Below the pieces are notes generated by a model, which had not been told where the DNA came from, did not search any database, and saw nothing but the letters and a program-made list of their open reading frames with translations. Positions 12,269-64,000 of a stretch of 64,000 bases of DNA are shown here, in pieces. Source of the DNA: Botryllus schlosseri (taxonomy: Eukaryota); assembly GCA_051294905.1 (NCBI GenBank), contig CM119372.1, positions 20,214,001 through 20,278,000 of the forward strand, in the 5' to 3' direction. Positions within the stretch are counted from its first letter, which is position 1. Each line of letters starts with the position of its first letter. Made by a program: the position numbers and the translations under genes.

Positions 12269-13518
12269 TTCGTTGCTGTAATTTATATCCTAATTCGGTT
12301 CGCTTCGTTTTCTATTATTTTGTGATGTTTTGAGAAGGGGATGTTACGTGGGTTATTGTATGTATTATGATGATGCTTCCCTGTAAAGTAGCAAGGTATG
12401 ACGTCATGCCTTACCCAACTGTGCATGACCGCATCACTCGTGCTTGACCGCTTCATCTCTTATCTCATCTCTGGTTGATGGCACATGGAAGCCATAATAA
12501 ATGTACAGCAAGAAACAGAGTAGATCTCCATCCGGGTCAGAACAAAGACCTGATCGTATACCCTTGCTAAGCATGGGTTATAAGCGCAATGCTATAATTC
12601 CAACCATATCCCTCACCAATATACGTTCGATAGTCGTATGATTAAGTGACCCCATAATAGGGGTGGGCAAACTACGGCCCGCGGACACCGTTTCGAGCGG
12701 CCCTCGAAAGGCTCAAGAATCGTATTTGAAATATTGAAAAAATGCGCAGTAAAAATCTAATCTCTGCAAGGACTCGATTAAACTTTTTCTCATTCTATTT
12801 CACCATGATAATCATAAGTTATGTTCTGACTAATATATTTTTATTTCATTGCTGGTGCGGTAGCCAGACCTCAAGGCACACACAGTTTAAAATGTTTCAA
12901 TTGCTAAACATTACAGAAAGTAAAAATGGGAATGACTTTCGGATTACGAGTGTAATTTGACATATGGCCACTCCAATGCTGTTCTTGGAAAAACCGTTTC
13001 GCGCGTGTTGTAGGTAGATTCGTTCTCTGTAATTATAAAATTTATAGCATATTTGAAGCTAACATTGTATATGACGCTGTCAGCATTGTGTGTCCTGAAG
13101 TTGAACCAACAGTAAAATCAGCAAATCTATAAACAGATCACTGCTCACAGATTCAAATCTCCACCCTGTTCTAAGAATCGGGACAAACTGACTTTCATCC
13201 CTACTTTTGAAAATTGGTTATATATTGAGGTTGACCAGCAGCTTATGAAATCTCGCCAATGTTTCTGTCGATTGTACCATATTCTCGAATCAATGGTTGG
13301 TTGGTTTGAATGAAAATATATTTAATTTTCACATCCTCACCATATAATGAAATACCAATTTTGCTTTTTAGTTTATAATCCCAATTCTATATAGTGCTGC
13401 AGGCGAATTGATTTAGATGTTGAATGCTCGGTCCACGAGTGATTTTTTTTACAAACTGGTTACTAATAAGGACGATCAACTTATATATTATCTCCAAATT
13501 TGTTAGGTCCATATATGA

Positions 13519-14635
13519 CAGTGGTTCTCAGACTGGGGGGCGTGGAGAGAGAGAGAGAGAGAATCTTTATTCGTATATACATTACATATCAACAAAATGT
13601 GACAGTGAAATGCGACATGCAAGGTAGACGGGAGGCTCGATATGACAAAGTCTTCAGAGCCGAGCCACCCAGGACAGGAGCAATTTTCACAGTCGATAAC
13701 TAATGAATAAAAAATAAAATAAAATTAACGAACGAAAGGAAAAATAAGACACAGTATCATGGACCAGTTCGAATTACAACGCAAATACAATTTAGCGGTA
13801 GTTAGAGATAAGAGAATGAAAACATTGTTTTTATAAAGCACAAGAGTCTAAATTGCGCAGATTAGGTGGCAGCTTATTTCAAACATTGACACCAATAAAA
13901 CTGATTGAATTTTGTACTAGACTGGTAGAGTGGTGTTACACAGACAGAGACAAGTTAGAAGAAAATCTGGTATGATGTTGATGGGCATCTGAAGGTATCT
14001 TGAACAGATTATCACAATATAGCGGCAGTTCACCCTGATGATAGCTATGCATAAATTTCATTAGGCTACCTCAAATTTGAAAATGTCTTCCACTTTCAAT
14101 ATTCCAACGCTTCGATACATGCTATTACAATTTTCATATCTAGATTTCCGACAGAGAATTCGTATGGCTCGGTTTTGTAAGACTTGCAATTTCTGCAGAT
14201 GTTTTTTCGCAGCAGGTCCCCAAACTAGGATCCCATAAATGAGATAGCAATGAATTAAGGCATAGTAGACTGATCTGAGAGTTTGATGAGGAATTAAATT
14301 TTTAAGGCGATAGAGAGCCCCGACACCACGCGAGATTTTAGTTTTTATATTGTTGATATGATCAGACCATCCGAGTATATCATCAGTGATAATGCCAAGA
14401 TATTTAACAGTTTTATATGTATCAAGATGTGCATTATTTACTATAATTTCATTGCGATTCACTTGTGCATGAAACACGAGAGTTTTGGCCTAGGAGGCAT
14501 TGAGCTGAAGTTGGTTAGATGCCATCCATTTTGACACTGTCGATAGCTTAGTGTTAATGTCGTCATTATAAAGGGGGCGCGAAACTTTTCACTATCATAA
14601 TGGGAGGCCTGTTTAATAAAGTTTAAGAACTACTG
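13519..14635 (+). mobile_element. hAT-type MITE split by a LINE insertion
   Basis: TIR CAGTGGTTCTCAGACT/AGTTTAAGAACTACTG; degenerate TSD ATATATGA/CCATATGA. Confidence 0.7.
13544..14568 (-). pseudogene. 5'-truncated non-LTR retrotransposon (L2/CR1-like) with RT C-terminal region and 3' end
   Basis: Minus-strand translation ...KWMASNQLQLNAS*AKT...VKYLGIITDDILGWSDHI...YYALIHCYLIYGILVWG...LQVLQNRAIRI..., continuing with stops to ~13795; 3' end AATAAA followed by a (TC)n tail at 13544-13570. Confidence 0.85.
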
Positions 14636-37817: not shown

Positions 37818-38221
37818 TGTACCTTGAATTCGAATTTTATCAAAATCTGCCAACAGATCTGAAAATAGTACATAGAGCTTCAATATTCGTCAGATTATAT
37901 TTTCATCTGCCCAAGACATACACACAATATACAATGCGATGCACAAGACACACAATGCACATGAACAGATAAGAGGATGCTGAATGACCATTTGCGGTCT
38001 TTTAGACATACATCCACCTCGACTTAGTGCCCGATGTCACAATCACAGTCACAGACGCTCACCACTAGACGCTAACTCCCCCAGCTTCAACGATCTGCTC
38101 ACCTCGATTGCACGAATTTCCATATAGGCAACTTCAAATTGGGTGATGAGACCGTCGATATACACAATACATATACAATATCATTCTCAATGCTGACGAT
38201 TACCTCCGACGAGTGTCAACC

Positions 38222-39384
38222 TATAGATAACTAACCTACGGATAGAAGGGCAACACGTGACTCACGGTCGAGTGATGCGACAACGGCAGATTTGTTGTCG
38301 CTTCGTAGCATGAAACGGGAGCGTAATTGCTAAGCCCATAGATGACGACCCGTCCGCTCAAATTAAATAAAGTTAATATTATTTGAAAGCTACAGTCGCG
38401 CTGATTCTGATGATACACATTAAGCTTTCATCTAGGCAATAGAACCACCCCGAAATAGCCTTCAAAGCCTGAAAATCGGCGTTGTTCTAAACAATTGCAA
38501 CGGCGCAGCACAATGACCATAACAACGGTCCGTGCGTGGTTGCGATTGTTTAGAACAGTGGTTCTTAACCTTGCCCCCAGCGCACCCCAGGGGGCGCTGG
38601 CGATTTTGAAGGGGGGCGGAAACGCTCAGGGGGCGATATGGGGGGCGCTGAGCTCAGGGGGGCGGTATGGGGGGCGCTGGAGAAAAATGGCTTCGCAGTA
38701 GATGATGTGGTGATAGGACATATCCTTGATGAGTATTCAGAGCAAACTAACACCGAAAACTTCGTTGCATATAGCCTTCAAAATGCATATAGGTTTAATT
38801 GTCCACGGGTGCCTAAATGACTGACACCGAATGTTCCTGTACCTAGGGCGACCAGGCCACACAAACTTTGCTGACCATCGAAATCACGATAGGGGGTTCG
38901 TGGGTGCGAAGCCCTCAGAAGTTCGGTTTATCACGCTATGGGTGCGCAAGGCAATCGTTTTTAGGGGGTAGACGAAGTGCTGTTACGGCCCTACCTCTTA
39001 CTCATTGTCTTTATTACATTCCTTACATTATGAAGTTGAGGGGGGGGGGGGGGCGCTGGAGCACGATAATTTTTGAAAGGGGGCGCTGGAGGAAAAAAGG
39101 TTAAGAACCACTGGTTTAGAACAATGCCGATTTTCATATTTTGAAGGCTATTTCGGGGTGGTTCCATTGCCTTGATGAAAATTTAATGTATATTATCAGA
39201 ATCAGTGCGACTGTAGCTTTCAAATAAGATCAACTTTATTTAATTTGAGCGCTCGGGTCGTCATCTATGGGCTTAGCAATTACGCTCCCGTTTCATGCTA
39301 TGAAGCGACAACAAATCTGCCGTTGTCGCATCACTCGACCGTGAGTCACGTGTTGCCCATCTATCCGTAGGTTAGTTATCTATA
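38222..39384. mobile_element. Foldback-type non-autonomous DNA transposon with ~270-bp TIRs
   Basis: 38222-~38492 is the reverse complement of ~39114-39384 (TATAGATAACTAACCTACGGATAGA...); flanking direct repeat GTCAACC (38215-38221, 39385-39391). Confidence 0.92.
38556..39113 (+). mobile_element. hAT-type MITE nested in the foldback element
   Basis: TIR CAGTGGTTCTTAACC/GGTTAAGAACCACTG; TSD GTTTAGAA (38548-38555, 39114-39121); GGGGGCG motifs. Confidence 0.93.
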
Positions 39385-39418
39385 GTCAACCTTATCTTCA
39401 TCTAAAAATCCATTCTAA

Positions 39419-51300: not shown

Positions 51301-53290
51301 ACATGAAGATGCTGATGTATATGCAGAGGTGGTCAAAGTAGTCAAGAAAGCTACTCAAGCAGAAGTAGAAGTAGCGACGAAAAAACCTACTCAAGTACGA
51401 GTAGAAGTACTTCTTCCATAAGCAACCTAAAACTACTTGAAGTAGAAGTAGAATTGACTGACTTTAAAAGTACTCAAGTAAGTAAGTAGTTGTGAAAACG
51501 ATCCTAATTCGTTCACATGGATTGTAAAAAGGTGCAAATTGAGCTATATACGAAAGGTGACGAGCTTGATTCATATTGATGCATACCAACAGGTATCCAA
51601 TTTTCGATATATTTTCCGGAAATTAACGGCATTACTACACTTGCTTTTATACTTCAACATGCATGTTATCCAGAAAAAAAGAACTGATATTAATTATAAC
51701 TCAAAGTATATGATACTGGGAATTAAAAGTAAAATGTAAATACTACTTGTAAAAGTGGAACATGTATTTCATGCCTCTAGTCAGAGTTGTAATGACTCGA
51801 GTCACGATTTTTTGGTGACTCTACTTGACTCGAGTCATTTTCTTAAAAATGAAAAATGACTCGACTCGACTCGAGTCAATTTGTGTATTGACTCGACTTG
51901 TACTCGAGTCATTGCGCATGACTCGGAGTCCGAGTCTCGGACCAAGTCAAGAAGTCATATGACTCTAGACCGGGTCTACCAAGACAGGCATTTCATTGTA
52001 ATTTCGAAGAATAGTAAAGTTATCACACTATAATTATTTTGTCTATCAGTACTAACACTTGAAAATGCTACGAGAAACTGATATAAGTGAGGAAAATTAA
52101 AATATTGTAAATGCGAACCAATCGATATCACCAGAAAGAGTAATCAAAAATGGGCTTAACAAGACTTTAACTGGAAACAGAGCAGTCAACACAATGACTT
52201 GGACTCGGACTCGAGTCAAAACACTATGACTCGGACTCGACACTCTACTTCGTGACTTGGACTCGGACTTGACTCGCTACTGAATTGAAAATGACTCGAC
52301 TTGACTCGAGTCAAAACTATATAAGTGAGATTGACTTGTGACTCGGAACCTTGTGACTTGGTTACAACCCTGCCTTTAGTCCAAATAGTTGCAAAGGTGA
52401 TATGCTAAAGCAGCTCTAAAACTAAAAAAAAAGTCAGAGTCCACTTTTCCAGATTAGGACACGCCATGGACATGCTAGATTACGAAACATTAGTTTCAAA
52501 CGTCATAATGAGCCATATATACTGTAATGAATTATTTCATATGGGCGAAGGGCGACATTGTGGTGTAAACGGAATCACGCCATACCGCGACCTAAATTAT
52601 ATTCACCGATACTTTCGTGAAATCATACTGGTTACTCGGTATATACTTCGCGCGAAGCTCGACGAAAATTCTTCGCTTTACTCAACTTTGATGAAAATTA
52701 AATGTTGATACTCCGTGAAAACAGCCCCGAAATTTCTCAGGTTGTCTTCCTGATTGGAAGATTGAACTACTTCTACTTGACAAACTGAAAATAGCGAAAA
52801 GTAAGTAAGTAGATCACCAAATATTACGAAGTAGAAATAGCGAAAACCAGATCTACTTGAGTAAGTACCAGAAGTAGAGGAAAACTACTTGGGTACTTCG
52901 AAAAAGTAGAAGTACTTCGTTACTGACCAACTCTGTGTATGCGTAAATAATAACGGTAGATATGTCTTACGCGGTTACAGTAATCTCCGCTGCCATGTCT
53001 TCATGAAGCTGACTTTGCCTGAGTTCCGTAGAATTGATGCTTACCAGCATAACCCCAATGACAAGCAACGGAACCAGCAGGATAATCTACAAATACATGC
53101 GAATGAACTGATGATTCCATTACATGATTAGTGACGAAGATTCCTTGTTAGATTTCATTAAGATCTTGGTTGCTTTCACACCTTATTTAGCGTCCACTTG
53201 CAACGTCATAATTTTATTTATCACACGAGCTTTCGGAGCTCCGCTCCTTCGTCATAATTCTGCACGTTTTGCTCTCACATTATTGTTCAT
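42332..53290 (-). CDS. Four-transmembrane MS4A/CD20-like protein, ~259 aa
   Basis: Exons 53086-52971, 50811-50733, 50528-50472, 48216-48089, 47780-47627, 43871-43737, 42430-42332 join in frame with GT-AG introns (768 nt); tentative first exon 53290-53279 (MNNN). Hydrophobic segments IILLVPLLVIGVMLVSI, YTPIWTGVLLTISTAMDFIAAC, IIMQILMSTLTFVASILCV, LYFACVVVSSISAVVSVVSIFVG; YxPxWxG resembles the MS4A TM2 motif. The family call is inference. Confidence 0.75.
42772..42990 (-). mobile_element. tRNA-derived SINE (related to 25522 copy)
   Basis: Minus strand GCCGACAAGATAGCGTAATGGTG...TGCTCGATCCCCGGTCGGGTCAGACCAAAGAC. Confidence 0.7.
44074..44139 (+). repeat. (ACTAT)n microsatellite, ~13 units
   Basis: Direct reading. 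Confidence 0.95.
44405..44815 (-). mobile_element. Partial GACTCGAGTC-rich MITE (family of 51782-52372)
   Basis: Ends CATTACAACCCTG; reverse-complement colinear with 51782-52190. Confidence 0.85.
45604..45761 (+). mobile_element. MITE, family of 37533-37817
   Basis: TIR TAGGGTTACCATA/TATGGTAACCCTA; no TSD recognised. Confidence 0.8.
46043..46757 (+). mobile_element. hAT-type MITE
   Basis: TIR CAGTAGCTCCCAACC/GGTTGGGAATCACTG; TSD GGCATGAT/GGTATGAT; GAGCCGC motifs. Confidence 0.85.
47085..47478 (+). mobile_element. hAT-like MITE
   Basis: Imperfect TIR AAGGGACACATTTAAAACAAA/TTTGTTTTAAACGCAACCCTA; TSD GTCGTATC (47077-47084, 47479-47486). Confidence 0.8.
48750..48977 (-). mobile_element. Terminal fragment of CAGAGGTGGTCA family
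   Basis: Ends GTACTTCGTTACTGACCACCTCTG, the reverse complement of the 8879 start. Confidence 0.8.
51014..51171. mobile_element. Small MITE
   Basis: TIR TAGTGCGGAGC/GCTCCGCACTA; degenerate TSD ACTACTAA/GCTACAAA; CCGGA motifs. Confidence 0.65.
51324..52935 (-). mobile_element. CAGAGGTGGTCA-family element, inverted copy with nested MITE
   Basis: Both TIRs; degenerate 8-bp TSD TGTATATG/TGTATGCG; reverse-complement colinear with 7605-8877. Confidence 0.9.
51782..52372 (+). mobile_element. GACTCGAGTC-rich hAT-like MITE
   Basis: TIR CAGAGTTGTAA/TTACAACCCTG; TSD CCTCTAGT/CCTTTAGT. Confidence 0.9.
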
Positions 53291-53482
53291 TTTGAAGTAT
53301 GGACGCTAACCCTATAATTGAAATATAGATGGACAGAAAATAAAAATATGAAGGGACACATATTAATTTTTCCTTTTTACAACCACACAACAATAAGGTG
53401 ACGTTCACGCTGATCTCGTTGCGTAGAAACGTTGGACTGTGCTCCACACGGCGAAAAAGGGATGTTTGGTATCATCGCAGCC

Positions 53483-53963
53483 CAGGGTTTTAATGACTGG
53501 AATTATAAATCGACTCGAGTCCCGACTTGACTCGCAATATTTTGGGGAATTGACTTGGCTCGAGTCATTTTCTTAAATATGGAAAATGACACGATCATAG
53601 TCTTGAGTCACTTTGTGTATCGACTCAGCTTGTACTCGAGACGTTGTACATGACTCGACCAAGTTATGTTGGTGATGTATCAAACGGCCAATACAGGAAT
53701 TTCATTGCAACTTTCACGAATAGTCAAGTAACCACAGAGCAGTATCTCGTCTATCATTACTGATACTTGATAATGAAAGACAATTTTTTTTAAATCTGTT
53801 TGAATAAACATGGGAAGAGTGACAAAAATTAGTAGGCTATACATTCGATATCACTCAAGCATTGTAAAAAATTGTATGTGTGCATGACATGAACTAGTGA
53901 CTGAACACTGAGCCTTGTGACTAGAATTCAGCCCTTTGCACCGTGACTTGGACTCGGACTTGA
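53483..53963 (+). mobile_element. GACTCGAGTC-rich MITE, cut off where the large element begins
   Basis: Starts CAGGGTTTTAATGACT; colinear with the 51782 copy until GACTTGGACTCGGACTTGACTCG; right TIR absent. Confidence 0.75.
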
Positions 53964-54014
53964 CTCGGAGGTGAGTAGTATAGTAGATCTCTCATGATGT
54001 GCCTGGGGCTCTTA

Positions 54015-54332
54015 TGGGCGGGGTGGTGACCTGCCTGAAAACCCGGGGTGATGACCCCACCCTTTTAGACCCCCCTTGTGGTGGTGACCTGCCATTGTTT
54101 CTTATGGGTGCGGTGATGACCCCACCCTTTCAGGTATAGGCTGCGGTGATGATATACCTTGAAAACTCGTGTTGGTGACCCCACCCTTTCGGTATAGGCT
54201 GCGGCGATGACCTGCCATGGAATGTCTGGTAGTGAACTAACGTTGTGGGTATAGGCTGCGGCGATGACCTGCCATGGCTTGTTTGGTAGTGAACTAACGT
54301 TGTGGATATAGACGGCGGCGATGACCTGCCTG
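54015..54332 (+). repeat. GC-rich subterminal repeats, ~57-bp unit, core GG(T/C)GATGACC(T/C)
   Basis: GGTATAGGCTGCGG(T/C)GATGA at 54133, 54191, 54248; GATGACCCCACCCTTT-like at ~54050, 54115, 54174. Confidence 0.85.
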
Positions 54333-54673
54333 TCATGTATTCTTACGCGGTCTCTGGTGACTCTCCATGTGTTCTTATGGGTGCGGCCGTGATTCGTACT
54401 TTTTGGTATAGGCATCTCTCGCGCTGTGTTGAATATGTATTAGGTATAGTAAATAGTCACGTGATTGACTCTTAGTTAATGTGTATACCTCAAATTATTA
54501 TATATGACCAATTTGAAGTAATTCCAGCGTTTACGGTGAATGTGACTTTAATATATCGTTATTCTTATGGGCGCGGCGATGATTCGTACTTTCGTTGATA
54601 GAATGCTAGCGGCATGTCGTACTTTCACCAAAAAGGGTGTGAAATAGTTTGCTAAATCTAGGAATCAGTCGCT

Positions 54674-55080
54674 TGGTAATTAGTTTACCACGGAGCTGGC
54701 GTAGACGGCGATTCGAATAGCAACAATAGCCGCGTTCACAAACTAACACTCCAAAAAGGTGTGAAATATTGGTAAAATCCCGCGATCGCTCACAAGATAA
54801 TACCTAAGACATAACCATCGCTCGCGACTCGCTGTTACATACATGCCGATCGTTGACAATGTAATATTTTGGTAATTAGTTTACCACAGAACCCGCGTAG
54901 ACGGCGATACCAACAATAGCCGCGTTCACAAACTAACACTTCAAAAAGGTGCGAAATAGGTTGCAAATCCCACGATCACTCACGAGATAACACCTAAGAC
55001 ATAGCCACCCCTCACCAACTTGTTGTTACATACATTCCAATCGCCACAATGTAATATTTTGATAATCGGTATGTCACAGG
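54674..55080 (+). repeat. Tandem repeat, ~195-bp unit, 2 copies plus degenerate flanks
   Basis: TGGTAATTAGTTTACCAC...CAACAATAGCCGCGTTCACAAACTAACACT at 54674 and 54870; AAAGGTG(T/C)GAAATA-like motif recurs at ~54632, 54755, 54944, 55212. Confidence 0.85.
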
Positions 55081-58000
55081 AACTGGATTTCACTGGTAAA
55101 ATTTAATAAGTAACGGATAACAGAGCCGTCACAGACGATGATTCGAATACCGACAAATTCTCACTTATTTGTGATCCCACCCTAATCCTTTGCGAAGTTG
55201 ACGCTTATTCGAAAAGGTGTGAAATAATTGTAAAACCCTACGTCGCTGACGGGATAATGCATCAGATATAGCGATCTAGTTATAGCATGGGTCGGAATCC
55301 ATTCGCGGGATGTACTAGGTAAATTGAGATAATCCGAAACGAAATATTTTGACTTTGGTGTAGTGTGAATTGAAATAGGATTGACAAACATGGCTATCAA
55401 CTTTCCCACAGTCCCATATTGATATTATACACACATTGATTCGAAACAAGTAATGGAACATTGCAACTCTATTCGCGACCCGACTTTTCGTTTGTCAAAG
55501 CGACATTTTTAACATCTTACCATACTCAAAAGAATTATTTACAACATTAACAAGTGTTCAAAATCTAGTTTTCACTTACTTGATTATACCACTGCAACTC
55601 ACAAATTTGAATTAATTCATTCTGGTTGTATTCATATGATCGGTCTTTTTATTCAATTGTAAAGGTCGTTACTATTCTGAAGACAAAGTAAGCTATTTAC
55701 TAATCGACACATAAATGACTTGACATAAACATATTATATTTTGAGTATACGAGATTTGAATGTCTGAACAATAACTGAGAAATAATTTATCACAATAAAA
55801 TACGTATATTACAGCGTAAAAGATGTTTGAATGTCAGCAACTCTGTACGGTCATAGTTACTACCACTAATTTACCCGACCAACTCGTCATGATCATTCCT
55901 GAAATCAACACAAATATGACCACTGACTTGAGTTAACCACAAAACAGCATCAAGTTTTAAATCCACTTGTAGCTTACGGATTATTTGAATGCTGGTTATG
56001 TTTTGTTGTAATTGAGTTAACGGAAATAGTATTACGTCTCGACATCTGACCATCTTACCATATTCAAAGAATCAACCACGAAAACATTGTCAAGTAAATC
56101 CGTTAACCGACCAACTCAACAGTATCAATATGAAAAACAGCCAAACATACACGAATCCATACAAGCACTAAAACCTAAAATCCATAACAAGCCTGGTTGT
56201 ATTCATATCCCTACGCATCTTTTTTATTCAACTTGAAAAGTCGTTACTATTCTGTAAGACAAAGAAATTACTATGCGGTATATTTTGTAAGATAAAAGTA
56301 ATTACTTCTCGGTGCCCGCGACTTGAGATTAACATAATATGTTTGAGTATGCGAGATTTGAAAGTCTGCCCAACATGTTGAGAATTCATTTCTTACAATC
56401 GAACGCAGGTGTTATATTGAAAATTATCATGATGTAAACATAAGGATTGACACATTGATTTGACATATGTAATAGTTGATCATGACTTGACTATTAAATA
56501 ATTTGCGTTAATTAGACCCGGCGTTGTGGTAAAGATTATTGTGACAGCAACAAACTTTTCAGTACCATTGTTATTAACATATTGAGTTGTAAACTATGTG
56601 TGTCTAAAATGTTCTCGATTGGAAAATTATTCAGCCTTGGTACAAACCACGCAGAGTATTGTGGATATCAGGAAATATTTTACAAATGTCTGCATTAAAC
56701 AAGACTAAAGATGAAACAACAATTCCCTTTGTTGAACAATAACCGGGGCAATACTTTATTGTCGGTGAGAATTGAAACACTTTCGCGCATTACCTGGTGT
56801 CAAGATATCACACTAGGTGAATTGACATACCACCATTTGATTAATGCTTAATCCGTTCGCATCATTTCACACTCACTTTGATCATTACAAAAGTAAATTG
56901 GAATATGTTTGCTAGGCACCACCTATTCAACTATACTTGAGTAATACAGAAACCTCTCAGCATTAATAAAATCGAAATGTGCGCTACACTGAAATCTACA
57001 AAAATGTGTTTGTATTGCTGTTCGTAGTAGCGATATCGATTTGAACCTCCATCATCCAACCAAACTACTGAGAGTCGTTGTCAATTTACATGACGTTCAC
57101 TGATTACATACTAGAACTATTTGTGCAACGCACACGATCAGAGAAATTGGACAATTTTCCATTGCCATTCGTCAAAGTAAATGTCGTCACAATAATCAGT
57201 CACTAAAAGACCATATACTTGTATGTGATTGAATCACCGACAATTAACTCGGTAAATCAAACCCCTGAGAAATTTCACTCAGTCATTGGATAGGAAACAG
57301 TGTCGCTTAATCGGTGTGAGTCGTTTTTTCTAAATACTAATCATATCTGTCCAGCCAAGAACAATTTTCACTCACTTGGGTAACGAAACCAGTGTCCAAT
57401 ATCAATACAAGATATTTTCGTCACACAAAAATAATCAACTTCACTCGATATTCCCGTACTACGAAACTGTACAAAGGTTACATGTTTTTGTATGACATGG
57501 AATTAATACCGATCGAAGTAACCGTATTGGAGATAACTTTTAAACAAACACACTCTACGTGGTTAACATTCTCGTCGATTCTATTGTGATTAATGCATAC
57601 TTCATGTGATCTGGATTCATTTCGAAATGGCTAAACATTCAACCTCGACGGATACGAATTGTCACACACTCAGGTAATATCATACCAAATAGTTCTTTAC
57701 AAGACACAGAAATTTGTTTTGGTCGTTTCGACTTTATTACTGGAGATACTCATCACTTCGCTTAATACAATCTAGATTTAAACTCCATCGAACCTTTGGT
57801 GTCTATCGTTTTGCTGGATACGAATTATGTTAGTCTAAGAGTACACAATTTTCACTATCTTGGGTTATGAACTCAGTGTGTTAGCGATCATTCAATATTT
57901 TGTGGGATACGAATGATCATCGTCACAACTGTTACAAAAGTACGAAGGTTATTTACATCACACAAAGTAGTCGACCTTACTCGGTATTTTTGATACTACA

Positions 58001-59134
58001 AAACTGAAGAATGATTGCCTACGCTTTCTAAGTAAAGAATGCTTGGTTATACTCTACAAACTGTTTTGACGTCGCAAGTGTTTTTGACATGAATGGTCAC
58101 GCATCTAAATATTCAAATAATCCAACACACGACTATAGCACTTACAGAAATATCATAGTTCTTGTAACAAAGTTGTATAAGTATAATGTTTATCGTAAGT
58201 CCCACATAGCCATGATATCCGTCCGAGTTTGACTTTTAGAAAACATTATACCGACATCGCGACATCTTTCAAAATTAAAATCGCGGTGACTGCTTCAGAG
58301 ACCTACCAATGATATTGCAGTAATACAGTTACTTCCACAAAAGAGTATGTATTCGACTTACTTACCACAAATCTAACGCACAAAACAATTTACTTTACTA
58401 ACGAGAAGCACCGAGCCTCACATCAAAACAACTAGAAAGTGGAACTATATTAAAAAACGTCGCTAACCTTTGTGCACCAGCTGTAAATCACACAAGCAAC
58501 ATGTTTCAAGATTCTGGTTATTGAAAAACGTTAAAGTGTTTCTCCTGCACCAAGTCGTTATGTTGACGAAAGCGTATATTGTAATGCCATGATCGATTTG
58601 CATTCGTTGGTCACAAACTGTCACTACTCTAAATAATTATTTTTCACTCAAACACAAAAGCATACTTGTCGCCAATCGTTTTCATCAAGCACGAGTTCAA
58701 GAAGCTTACTTACTACGACATGAATTGTTATTTTGATGTTGTGTAAATAGGTAATAATTTATTTTAGTAACACTACATCAACATCATCGAGTTGTGCGAA
58801 TAGATTTACATGTGGTTTTAATCGAAGTACACAGCACGGTCTAATGTAGATTCATCTCTATTGTACAGCAACTCGGTAATCGAAATGCATTAACATTTAA
58901 ACAACGATCTTGGTTCGTCACGCGAAAAATATCTTTACTGTCGCAACACTCTGATACTCTGCACAAGATGTGTAAATCCTTTTCACACTCATAATAATAC
59001 ACTAACGGGATACCGATGTCAAGCAACAACGTTTAACAACATCACTGACACTGAACATACGATACCTACCCAAGTAAAAATATCATTTTCACCAGGAGGT
59101 CAGTCGTTACTTGTGTACAATTACCATTTTCCCT

Positions 59135-60315
59135 TGGGAGTTTAGCGTTACCCGAGTAACAAAACCATTTTCACTTGGAAATATATGTTTTCCCTCAACA
59201 ACAAACGTTTTTCACTTGGAAATATATTTTTTCCCTGGGTAACAAACCCCTTTTCACTTGGAAATATATTTTTGCCCGGGATAACAAACCTTTTTCACTT
59301 GGAAATATATTTTTTCTCTTGGTAACAAACCTTTTTCACTTGGAAATATATTTTTTCTCTGGGTAACAAACCTTTTTCACTTGGGAATATATTTTTTCCC
59401 CGATCAACAAACCTTTTTCACTTGGAAATATATTTTTTTCCCCGATCAACAAACCTTTTTCACTGAGCAACAAACCATTTTCACTTGGAAATATATTTTC
59501 CCCAGGCAACAAACCCTTTTCGTTTGGAAAACTATCATTTACCTGAGTACCAATACCATTTTCGTTTTGAAAACTGACAACTACACCGGTCAATTTGATA
59601 TTTTTTTTGTATATTGTTACAGCAGACAGTGACAAAATATACACCAACAACGACTCCGATACATTTGTGTAATCAAATATTCACTTGCTCTGATGCATCC
59701 CATCAAAATCATTGGTTACTCACATACAATAACAATGTGCTGTTGTACATCGACATGTATGTTTTCGGAATTGGTGAATAAAGGGGTTTCTGATATGTCC
59801 GTGATGTCCGGGTTCATGCTTTGGATTTTCCAGAGTCAAAATGTCTGAATAAAACACCTCCTTGACTATGGTTGGTATGTGGATAACGGTGTTCGGAAAA
59901 CGGTTGGATTTATGTCACCCATCGCGATAACAACTCCAGGTCGAGTTTTCCTCCCGCATGTTTACTATATTGTGTCTTTATTGGTCAATGTATGTCTCGA
60001 CATTCAGTTTGAAATCGGAAACCCTGATAAAGTACGTAACCGGATCCGGATATCAACTCTGAATCGATAAACCAATGAACAATATTCAAAGTAAACATGT
60101 TACACCCTGTGTTTCCACGAAAAAATACCATCCAGACATACGTCGCGCTTGTTTGCCCACACCAGTATACGCGCAAATGGAGGTGTGTGACATTGCATGC
60201 AATGTGTTGGTATACAAACATCGATCCACAGACATTATCATAACCGGTAGTTTTGATGTAGATCGAATGTCACTCGATAACAATACCAATAAGCCACATT
60301 GCAATGACTCTGAGT
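59135..60315 (+). repeat. Left arm of long inverted repeat (at least 1181 bp)
   Basis: Reverse complement of 62820-64000; paired coordinates sum to 123135 at both ends (no net indel); one mismatch noticed (60243/62892); mirrored ORFs in the ORF track. Confidence 0.97.
59168..59530 (+). repeat. ~41-bp tandem minisatellite, ~9 units
   Basis: Unit TTTTCACTTGGAAATATATTTTTTCCCTGGGTAACAAACC; mirrored at ~63605-63967. Confidence 0.95.
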
Positions 60316-61058
60316 CAATCTGAAGCATGACATACAGACACACAAACATGGAACCGTAACATGGGTTATTCGCACGACGGTGAAAGTGAACTGTACAACA
60401 TATACCAATTGGGCGTTCACAGTCAAATATGCGAACCATGCACAATCATATACCCAGATTTTTGTTGGATATGTACGAAACCGATAAATCGATACATTTC
60501 TTTTCCTTCAACGTCAATAATACAAAGGTCATTCAAATGCATCACTCGAATGTGAGGTTCGTCTGGTGTAAAATCCATGTCAAATAACACCAAAGTGTGC
60601 CTTCCGTGTTTTATTATTTCCACCGTCGCATCTTGTCTGTGTCGTAACACTATGGTGTGGGGAGTTGAAAAACGGTGGATTCTAAAACGGATTGACATGA
60701 CCAACTGAAACCAACGTCAATAGACTTGTGACGATGTCGTTTCAAAATGTTACCGATATGACGAGCGCAGCCTCGATCTCTTGTGGCGATGACCGTTTCG
60801 AAATGTCACCGGACGAACTGGACCCATACGAAGGTGTGTTTTATGATTGCGTGTGAAATCACGAGGTAGCGTTCTATTGTGGTGTACGATTGCAGTCTTC
60901 ATTCCACAGAAACACACCTTATTGGATCACAGTATCAGTCCGACATTTGCACGATATTTACCCGGAGTCGTTATGTGGGAGTAGCGACGTCCATGCATCG
61001 TGACTGAAAGACTGATCGCAATCATTTCGAGCACCGTACTTCGATAGTTCACCTAGAT

Positions 61059-62626
61059 CAAGGGTCGGCAACCTACGGCCCGCGGGCCGGATCCGGCCCG
61101 CCAAGCGAAATCGTCCGGCCCGCGACGAAATAACTAGTTCCCACGAGAATACGGCCCGCCGTTTCGTAATGAGTTCCAATCTGCAGTGCAGCGCTGCTTG
61201 GAAAGAATGCGGCATTGCTCCGATATAAAGTATCCCACGCCGTATTAGTCTATTGTTACGCCATAAAACTGGTGCGAAGGCGGTCGACTAGTAGCCTAGC
61301 CTATCTCGTACTGAAATTAGGAGATGGAGAATGTTTGTGGAGTAGACTAGACCAGTGCTTATCAAGCAGGTGTATTGCGCAACCGAGGGTATACCATACT
61401 TTTTTAAGGGTTTTTGCCTCTCATATAGGGTGCGACAATAAAGGTGCCGTTCCTCTGCTCAGACGCAATGACAAAATCTCAAACTTTCCCTGTTTCATCA
61501 TGGATAACTAACATCCGTAGGTTAGTCATCTGTAGTTTAATTCACCAGAAGACATTTTACGCTAAGACAACAAACCTGAATAATAGTGTTTTGGACACAA
61601 TGGTGAAAGCTGATTTTGTCTCACAAACTGAATGACCGACAGAAGCAGAGCATCAATATGGCGATGTCTTGTATATCTGCCATGTTCGCGCATTAAGTCG
61701 AGAAGCTATGCTTGCACGAGTGTATGAACTGAGAAATGAAATAGCAACTTTCCTTGAAAATACAAACATCGCCAACTCATAATCTTGTCATCGAAAATGG
61801 GTATCTAATCTAGATTTCGTAGTACATTTAACGTCACATCTAAACAAATTGAATTTGCAACTTCTGGGGGAAACAACTAAATAGCCTACATGAGATGTTG
61901 AGACGCATTCGAAACAAAACTGCGACTCTGGGAATGTCAACAGTACAAAGAAAATTATGCTCACTTTCCTCTGGAGGAGAGTAAACCTAGTACCAGCACT
62001 ATACATTTGTAACTGTGATATACGAAATTTAATTACTGAATTTCCACCCGCTTTTTCGACATTCGTCCTGTACAAAATATATTCTGACTACTCAGTACTC
62101 CGTTTAATGTGGACGCCAAAACATTTGCCAGAAAATTTCAAATAGGCCCATTTGAAATGAGATGCAGTTGAATTGAATGACAAATTTCATACAATGAGGA
62201 TATCGCTGAATGACTTTGACAAAGAGTACGTTCTTGAAATGGGTCTTCATCCTAACTTGAACAACAATGCAAAAGAAATGGCATCGACTTTTGTTTTCAA
62301 CAATGAAATTCACGAAGAGCAAGCTAAGATCACGTATCCCAACGCCTATTTAGAATATGGTCTGATTCTTACTTCATCTGACTTGTTAGCAGAAGTAAAA
62401 AACCTTTCACAAAACAAGCTGCGCCAAGTGTCACATTTATCCTGCGTTGTTGAAGTGTAAATACGTGTGTTTTGCTCTTTTTGTGATTTGTATGATTGAG
62501 ATTGCAGCATTGTAGGGTAATATACCGACGTGATCGATAAATATAGTATTAAGAAAAAATCCGGCCCGCCAAAATGTTGTGCACTCGAAATTTGGCCCGT
62601 GACTAGCAAAAGGTTGCCGACCCCTG
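61059..62626 (+). mobile_element. hAT (Charlie/Buster, GTF2IRD2-like) element with decayed transposase, in the spacer of the inverted repeat
   Basis: TIR CAAGGGTCGGCAACCT/AGGTTGCCGACCCCTG; perfect TSD ACCTAGAT (61051-61058, 62627-62634); remnants ICSLIHQKTFYAK, YGDVLYICHVRALSREAMLARVYELRNEI, WVSNLDFVVHLTSHLNKLNLQLLG. Confidence 0.93.
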
Positions 62627-62819
62627 ACCTAGATCAAACGCTGTAGTCTCAGCAGAAAACTTCGGTGACGACAACACGATGGATATTGACCGATGTATCC
62701 AATTGGTCTGGGTGGTCCGTCTACAGATAGGGTCATGACTATCTTGTAATGTTACAACACGATACCACCATCGACTAAATCAGAGAACGATGTCGAAATA
62801 TCGATGTAATAGCGCGGAC

Positions 62820-64000
62820 ACTCAGAGTCATTGCAATGTGGCTTATTGGTATTGTTATCGAGTGACATTCGATCTACATCAAAACTACCGGCTATGATAA
62901 TGTCTGTGGATCGATGTTTGTATACCAACACATTGCATGCAATGTCACACACCTCCATTTGCGCGTATACTGGTGTGGGCAAACAAGCGCGACGTATGTC
63001 TGGATGGTATTTTTTCGTGGAAACACAGGGTGTAACATGTTTACTTTGAATATTGTTCATTGGTTTATCGATTCAGAGTTGATATCCGGATCCGGTTACG
63101 TACTTTATCAGGGTTTCCGATTTCAAACTGAATGTCGAGACATACATTGACCAATAAAGACACAATATAGTAAACATGCGGGAGGAAAACTCGACCTGGA
63201 GTTGTTATCGCGATGGGTGACATAAATCCAACCGTTTTCCGAACACCGTTATCCACATACCAACCATAGTCAAGGAGGTGTTTTATTCAGACATTTTGAC
63301 TCTGGAAAATCCAAAGCATGAACCCGGACATCACGGACATATCAGAAACCCCTTTATTCACCAATTCCGAAAACATACATGTCGATGTACAACAGCACAT
63401 TGTTATTGTATGTGAGTAACCAATGATTTTGATGGGATGCATCAGAGCAAGTGAATATTTGATTACACAAATGTATCGGAGTCGTTGTTGGTGTATATTT
63501 TGTCACTGTCTGCTGTAACAATATACAAAAAAAATATCAAATTGACCGGTGTAGTTGTCAGTTTTCAAAACGAAAATGGTATTGGTACTCAGGTAAATGA
63601 TAGTTTTCCAAACGAAAAGGGTTTGTTGCCTGGGGAAAATATATTTCCAAGTGAAAATGGTTTGTTGCTCAGTGAAAAAGGTTTGTTGATCGGGGAAAAA
63701 AATATATTTCCAAGTGAAAAAGGTTTGTTGATCGGGGAAAAAATATATTCCCAAGTGAAAAAGGTTTGTTACCCAGAGAAAAAATATATTTCCAAGTGAA
63801 AAAGGTTTGTTACCAAGAGAAAAAATATATTTCCAAGTGAAAAAGGTTTGTTATCCCGGGCAAAAATATATTTCCAAGTGAAAAGGGGTTTGTTACCCAG
63901 GGAAAAAATATATTTCCAAGTGAAAAACGTTTGTTGTTGAGGGAAAACATATATTTCCAAGTGAAAATGGTTTTGTTACTCGGGTAACGCTAAACTCCCA
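62820..64000 (-). repeat. Right arm of long inverted repeat, continues beyond window
   Basis: Match to the left arm is unbroken at the last base (64000 pairs with 59135). Confidence 0.97.

Follow-up and report, generated by a model that had tools for sequence, protein, structure and literature searches.

A foldback Polinton-like family in Botryllus schlosseri, palindromic over most of its length and probably dependent on a coding Polinton

The locus described here raises the question of what kind of mobile element can consist almost entirely of a palindrome, and how such an element could spread. It lies at the end of a 64,000-nucleotide stretch of the Botryllus schlosseri genome (the window; G000:C2:20214001-20278000, in an assembly of 495.5 Mb), where a miniature inverted-repeat transposable element (MITE) breaks off after position 53973 (positions are those of the window unless a contig is named) and a sequence beginning with AGTAGT takes its place. 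An initial annotation, made from the letters of the window, had noticed that the segments 59135-60315 and 62820-64000 mirror each other as near-perfect reverse complements across a spacer of 2504 bp, and proposed a foldback, non-autonomous derivative of a Polinton (Maverick) of about 15 kb with arms of about 6.3 kb. That proposal is supported. The element belongs to a family of about 800 copies that shares its ends with a coding Polinton family of the same genome, and we consider it quite probable that it is a helper-dependent foldback Polinton, spread by its helper and with its arms reset by a hairpin-type process.

The focal element, whose right end was read from the neighboring stretch of the contig, occupies positions 53974 to 69161 (15,188 bp, or 13,612 bp without a hAT insertion). 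The mirror had been predicted to continue to about 69161 and it does so, running ungapped over 6,342 bp from each terminus with four mismatches (left-arm positions 54120, 54121, 55479 and 60243, the last being the single mismatch between the two segments first noticed). The left arm spans 53974..60315 on the plus strand; the inner 1,181 bp of the right arm lie at 62820..64000 on the minus strand, and the arm continues past the window to C2:20283161, where it ends in the reverse complement of the left end. The termini, AGTAGT (53974..53979, plus strand) and ACTACT, correspond to the (AGT)2//(ACT)2 motif described for Polintons and Mavericks (PMC8097293). On both sides stands the 6-bp target site duplication (TSD) GAGGTG (53968..53973, plus strand, and C2:20283162-20283167, outside the window), of the length typical of Polintons and, as expected beforehand, present past the right terminus. 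The left part of the interrupted MITE (53481..53973) is 70-73% identical to other MITE copies in the window; its right part resumes beyond the element, in register, base for base, with an intact copy at about 52250-52370.

Between the arms is a central loop (60316..62819; 2,504 bp), of which 928 bp are family sequence, a figure that the annotation had calculated correctly by subtracting a degenerate hAT-type element (61059..62626; 1,568 bp) and one copy of its 8-bp duplication ACCTAGAT (61051-61058 and 62627-62634). This hAT was not found in the other copies examined. Although its ends and duplications are those of Polintons, the focal element is not an autonomous Polinton, as is evident from the length of its terminal inverted repeats (TIRs) and from the missing core genes for a protein-primed polymerase, an integrase, an ATPase, a protease and capsid proteins.

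The family was delimited by two patterns. A 20-base terminus pattern gave 940 forward and 939 reverse matches genome-wide, which are not attributable to chance because the reversed control gave only 1 and 3; a loop-gene motif with one mismatch allowed gave 820 matches, and its control none. The family thus comprises about 800 copies, or roughly 2% of the genome (820 x 13.7 kb of 495.5 Mb, an upper-side estimate). A census took all 36 forward-reverse terminus pairs no more than about 42 kb apart in C1 0-33 Mb, among the matches listed, and contains 4 coding Polintons, 27 foldback copies with an arm of at least 4.8 kb and 5 deleted copies. The 6-bp duplication is perfect in 32 of the 36 pairs and one base off in one; of the three unmatched pairs, one is mis-paired (the true outer pair matches), one is probably two elements and one has a mirrored flank. 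Moreover, short-read contigs of four sequencing runs (X1, X3, X6 and X12) carry the strand-switch joint that leads from the far end of the loop into the arm (three contigs in X1 with 32 bases on the short side, two in X6 with 50 and one in X12 with 30), at the level of the family and not of a specific locus. The duplications and the short-read joints together indicate that the inversions are not assembly foldbacks. A further run, X15, labeled as organism B, contains arm and loop at high identity and little hAT; it may represent a second species with the family, or the same species differently labeled.

The next question is where the proteins for mobility come from. Genome profile searches with Pfam PF03175 and PF21738 gave no match, a null that reflects insensitivity, because the single match obtained with PF04665 led to 118 polymerase-like matches, many of them in open frames of 1,200-1,300 codons. 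There are at least four Polinton families in the genome, and four coding copies (F2, 17.3 kb; F6, 15.8 kb; and two more of 15.4 and 15.3 kb) have the same end motif as the foldback copies, so that an autonomous partner with the same terminus, which the annotation had suggested looking for, does exist. These helper elements have terminal repeats of 0.5-0.8 kb and 6-bp duplications, and their frames encode an ATPase, an rve integrase with a chromodomain (E 3e-16) and a DNA_pol_B_2 domain, whose match (E 2e-5) falls slightly short of the cut-off. A 167-aa frame resembles an adenovirus-type protease by eye and has no match among Pfam or PDB sequences. A frame of 423-432 aa is likely the major capsid protein, judging from its position, its 138 homologues and two weak Pfam capsid matches among 80 aligned members; the named homologues are called 'F54H12.2-like', a name that we take to be linked to the Polinton capsid. 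Capsid homology of Polintons is treated in PMC4028283. The candidate capsid frame is open in most of about 80 copies (80 full-length at 96% or more, 3 near-full or at 88%, 11 at about 80% and 6 partial, among the best 99 of 307 candidates). Helpers accordingly number about 80-95 against about 800 foldback dependants, an approximately ninefold difference.

The foldback family is tied to the helper through its ends. In the focal element, the homologous part of the arm is 53974..54507 (plus strand), with 68% identity over arm positions 1-146, 81% over 400-534 (E 5e-32) and no match further inward. An end patch of at least 100 bp at 85-98% identity to one of the four helper copies is present in 22 of 32 foldback copies, at varied positions, the highest value being 98% over 126 bp. 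One mosaic copy, E1 (C2:20084093-20096295), has 846 bp of the helper right end at 91% and a matching 6-bp duplication; its arms are drawn from two subfamilies (76-87% alike), it has no loop, and its helper-derived segment holds a frame of 214 aa; the homologue of this frame in the helper shows a faint match to an OB fold (E 0.08). Two other Polinton families (19.6 and 17.9 kb), which have only AGTAGT in common with the foldback family, give no match to the arm, nor does a third, whose ends were not found; by sequence comparison, the end homology is to one coding family only. Target choice is shared as well: the center of the target is pyrimidine-purine in 35 of 43 foldback duplications against a 25% background (p 1e-14) and CG in 19 of 43 against 4%, and it is pyrimidine-purine in all four coding copies. 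From the shared ends and target preference, mobilization by helper enzymes is likely. A different, partly broken Polinton at C11:4506703-4526063 carries a Death domain, a caspase-family domain and a ubiquitin-conjugating enzyme as cargo.

Beyond the ends, no relationship was detected. Helper proteins have no match in any of the 32 non-coding census copies at E 1e-6 and nothing below E 0.06 in the focal copy, and the inner 5.7 kb of the focal arm have no detectable likeness to helper DNA or proteins. The foldback element therefore did not arise from the helper by internal deletion alone. The earlier suggestion that nearly the whole body is Polinton TIR holds in that the arms are a full-length mirror, and fails in that only the outer 0.5-0.8 kb of each arm are homologous to the helper terminal repeat.

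A similar division applies to the suggestion that the element has almost no coding core: the arms are non-coding, whereas the loop holds a conserved gene. When diverged copies were compared along the focal arm in a sliding scan, frameshifting indels occurred in every interval of the arm and stops in the best frame, and the only interval flagged as coding lies in the loop, at an open reading frame (ORF) of 91 codons, ORF91 (60423..60698, minus strand, read from 60698 to 60423). An intact frame of 91-97 codons is present in 23 of 32 copies; it is kept in a subfamily whose remaining loop barely aligns, and is absent from three copies, which belong to a short-loop subfamily. For ORF91 the ratio of nonsynonymous to synonymous divergence (dN/dS) averages 0.35 and third positions account for 46% of the changes, in pairs that are not independent. 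Between subfamilies, in 25 copies chosen to be stop-free in the ORF91 frame, the corresponding ratio of proportions (pN/pS) is 0.40 in that frame as compared with 0.53-1.35 in the five other frames, all of which contain stops; one between-subfamily pair alone gives p 3e-9 for the ORF91 frame. Among the 150 best genome matches, a set biased to close copies, 146 have no stop in it. The substitution pattern thus indicates that ORF91 is under purifying selection.

ORF91 is nevertheless an orphan. Protein searches gave one match each in 5.8 billion proteins and in 1.84 billion representatives, in each case over the full length and with a score typical of members of the same family, and no homologue outside the family was found in Pfam above noise, PDB sequences, Atlas, viral contigs or the helper. 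Three metagenome matches were rejected because, judging from one of the three loci, they are due to a bacterial repeat protein that matches by chance over 8 residues. The protein is predicted at low confidence to be all-beta; no fold was assigned, the AlphaFold model being poor (pLDDT 48.5) and even the top structural match being weak (Z 4.5, rmsd 4.2). The 21 further ORF clusters in arm and loop have dN/dS values of 0.36-1.66, mostly near 0.8, and the cluster with 0.36 (48 codons, 15 close copies, pS 0.06) has too few changes for its value to count as evidence of selection. An Rfam scan gave no match at E 1.

How the two arms remain alike is the central mechanistic question. Arm-arm divergence has a median of 0.21% (0.02-2.45%, 38 copies) and the nearest of 32 sampled copies is 0.5-13% away; the terminal repeats of the helper differ by 0.16-0.63%. 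Among four copies with loops 94-95% identical to the focal loop, two have arms that are 96% alike and two have arms of 74-89%. Because loop and arm segments have different nearest relatives, the copies are mosaics, and within any one copy the two arms share the mosaic. In three cases a whole insertion has been copied from one arm to the other. In copy E11, a 3,991-bp hAT with its 8-bp duplication stands at the same site in both arms, which implies such copying (a third match to the E11 junction proved to be an independent hAT site), and E10 is a 27-kb palindrome re-centered on a nested copy, with the outer duplication kept. At C1:16765283-16813392, three family members are nested in 41.8 kb. 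Large one-sided indels are kept in 14 of 38 copies, and arm-arm divergence climbs with them (rho 0.51, p 0.001, n=38), a correlation suggesting that the arms grow apart after insertion and that most of the resetting happens at spread. In our reading, the arms are reset for the most part while the element spreads, and are occasionally copied in place. Copy E12 (C11:19810176-19831040) has two loops and a 7.5-kb internal duplication that is 100% identical, which may be an accordion-like replication product or an assembly error, and the copy at C1:3275001-3303317 has a 15.6-kb insertion in its right arm that is apparently a large inverted repeat in its own right and bears little resemblance to the reference sequences of the family.

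A mechanism for a helper-dependent foldback Polinton can be outlined from the biology of Polintons and adenoviruses. Protein-primed polymerases replicate by strand displacement. The helper's polymerase would begin at both ends of the element and displace a single strand, which would fold into a 6.3-kb stem with a 0.9-kb loop. One arm would then be repaired or re-synthesized on the other, resetting the differences between them, so that any sequence exchanged with the helper or a sister subfamily would appear in both arms. The helper integrase would insert the product.

The strongest alternative accepts the same helper dependence and holds that the arms are kept alike mainly by chromosomal gene conversion after insertion, in which case many copies would be older than their arm identity suggests. 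Palindromes of Y chromosomes are kept alike by gene conversion. It is here that part of the evidence weighing against our preferred explanation is found. The mirror at C1:16.77-16.81 Mb extends 3.1 kb into the flank (99.8%), which indicates copying in the chromosome, one flank having been replaced by an inverted copy of the other. The E11 hAT junction occurs at that locus only. The focal copy has no near-identical sister (its best other matches, with the best 40 candidates scored, are 93-95%), so that its low arm divergence could also stem from conversion in place. Mismatches are also patchy, with a variance/mean above 2 in 13 of the 18 copies that have at least 15 mismatches; much of this patchiness falls in tandem arrays, where alignment is poor. 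Other points against the preferred explanation concern the helper and the intermediates: an 85% helper patch is lacking in 10 of 32 copies, of which the focal copy is one (its best being 81%), the inner 5.7 kb of the arms are not accounted for by that explanation, no extrachromosomal or hairpin molecule has been observed, and raw RNA reads over ORF91 are sparse in three runs and define no transcript. Against conversion as the main process stand the retained one-sided indels and the rise of divergence with them, a mismatch density that does not fall toward the loop (0.52-0.77% for the inner deciles versus 0.23-0.33% mid-arm), and the helper terminal repeats, which differ by a similar amount. 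We regard conversion as a serious but rather unlikely alternative to arm resetting during helper-driven spread.

A related question is why the arms have stayed so long. Uninterrupted arms measure 6.1-6.8 kb and loops mostly 897-989 bp or 339-341 bp; the short-loop subfamily that lacks ORF91 (339-341 bp; C1:2651067, 27084649 and 31635425) has arms of 6.6-6.8 kb and a total of 13.6-14.0 kb. Across 16 subfamily representatives, arms align over a median of 56% with summed indels of 1.6 kb (median), and the net difference is only 217 bp. The ratio of net to root-mean-square indel is 0.43 as against about 0.8 for random signs, in 120 non-independent pairs and with the caveat that repeat misalignment can mimic compensation. 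Twice the shorter arm plus the loop amounts to 13,677 +/- 323 bp (13,193-14,400) in 24 copies, a set from which 8 of 32 were excluded for having deletions or insertions in both arms, short or compound copies never having been among the 32; in these selected copies, the length is 79-89% of that of the four helpers (15.3-17.3 kb).

That the length is conserved near that of the helper is a hint of packaging. Some 12 kb of non-coding arm, where likely less than 1 kb of ends is needed, would make sense under a capsid limit; unknown cis elements or replication limits could also keep arm length. In a more speculative extension of the mechanism, the arms would act as stuffer, holding the element at about 13.7 kb to suit a capsid, and ORF91 might aid the element's own spread. 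The family would then be a natural satellite virus of an animal polintovirus, having a 13.7-kb hairpin genome, stuffer arms fitted to the helper capsid and one advantageous orphan gene, an idea that we put forward tentatively and with less than even expectation. As of 2021, particles of animal Polintons were unobserved according to the accessible text of two studies (PMC8097293, PMC7805220). No evidence of particles was found in the sequencing runs checked; a seawater run, X12, was considered as a source of particle DNA and discarded, its host hAT depth being similar to that of the loop, as for host DNA.

A second alternative is that the family is a Foldback-type cut-and-paste element with borrowed or convergent Polinton-like ends, mobilized either by a DDE transposase or by the Polinton integrase without the polymerase. 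Its long, internally repetitive inverted arms do recall Foldback elements, with a subterminal tandem repeat (57-bp unit, 2.5 copies; 54191..54330), a second repeat (190-bp unit, 2 copies; 54673..55066) and an array near the loop (41-bp unit, about 7.5 copies; 59151..59464, mirrored at 63671-63978), and the bulk of the arm is unrelated to the helper. However, this alternative is hard to reconcile with the combination of 6-bp duplications, (AGT)2 ends, helper patches of up to 98% and the same target preference, and it explains neither the resetting of the arms to identity nor the fixed element length of 13-14 kb. All four coding elements with these ends in the census are Polintons, no genome-wide search for transposases having been made. 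We give this alternative little credence.

Finally, that the palindrome is an artefact of folded-back long reads, for which one could cite the nearly identical arms, the possibly artefactual duplication in E12 and the fact that no long read spanning the focal copy was seen, is already largely refuted and has next to no probability in view of the matching duplications, the resumed MITE flank, the four arm mismatches, the one-sided insertions in sister copies, the conserved 0.9-kb loop with a selected gene and the loop-to-arm joints in short-read contigs of four runs. Elsewhere in the window, a pair of 277-bp inverted repeats (38221-38497 and 39109-39385; 93% alike, 611 bp apart) is probably another small DNA transposon.

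The model of Polinton replication has so far rested on inference. A dependant that keeps 79-89% of its helper's length despite turnover of its interior, and outnumbers the helper about ninefold, makes the questions of particles and replication testable on natural material. If the family is a packaged satellite, the constraint on its size would be evidence at the genome level for particle formation by animal Polintons, and the family would be an abundant marker with which to find them. An implication for surveys is that foldback elements are invisible to protein-based searches for Polintons and would be missed by repeat filters with an upper limit of 2,500 bp, the value used in a coral survey (10.1101/2023.10.06.561300, accessible text). 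Several hundred near-perfect 6-kb palindromes are also a source of rearrangement, one of them having already copied 3.1 kb of flank.

Compared with known systems, the family resembles Polintons in its (AGT)2//(ACT)2 ends, its 6-bp duplications, its size and its homology to the terminal repeats of a coding Polinton. For vertebrate Mavericks, the accessible text of Barreat and Katzourakis (2021; PMC8097293) gives repeats of 46-1,447 bp, (AGT)2//(ACT)2 or (AG)3//(CT)3 ends, 6-bp duplications, sizes of 12.7-24.6 kb, within which the foldback elements fall, and a median copy number of 8 with a maximum of 287; that of a nematode study gives Polinton repeats of 100-1,500 bp (Jeong et al., 10.1101/2023.08.22.554363). 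Unlike these, the foldback elements have arms of 6.1-6.8 kb and number about 800, and the focal one is 93% palindrome, lacks core genes and has an orphan gene in its loop. The term 'nonautonomous' is not in the accessible text of PMC8097293, and an anole study notes no non-autonomous copies in the corresponding part of its text (PMC3014272); further literature for comparison includes PMC6431247, 10.1101/2024.01.15.575659 and 10.1101/145037, likewise in their accessible parts. At the level of titles and abstracts we found no report of a palindromic non-autonomous Polinton, and Repbase, Dfam, subscription journals or supplements may hold one.

Non-autonomous Polintons in Repbase, e.g., the zebrafish N-families, are gene-poor, have Polinton ends and depend on a coding partner; to our knowledge, none of them is a palindrome over its whole length. 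The foldback family differs from them in that its interior did not arise from the helper by deletion and its length is held near the helper's. The hairpin or palindromic derivatives F1 and F2 of the yeast plasmid pGKL1 and snap-back defective viral genomes are short-lived, unintegrated by-products. Like the foldback elements, they have an end region doubled round a short loop and need the protein-primed polymerase of a helper, as the foldback family would; unlike them, the foldback family is integrated and diversified, and has its own selected gene. The Drosophila elements FB and Galileo, which have 7-9-bp duplications, arms of variable length and a cut-and-paste transposase, share with it long inverted arms, internal tandem repeats and a central loop, and differ in their ends and in the length of the duplication, which is 6 bp in the foldback family. 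The nearest parallel for packaging, which for the foldback family is hypothetical, is the helper-dependent adenovirus vector, in which genomes below about 27 kb are packaged poorly, so that non-coding stuffer is needed (PMC3186006, accessible text). Such vectors are engineered and non-palindromic, unlike the foldback element, but the plan is similar: only the viral ends are retained and the rest is stuffer.

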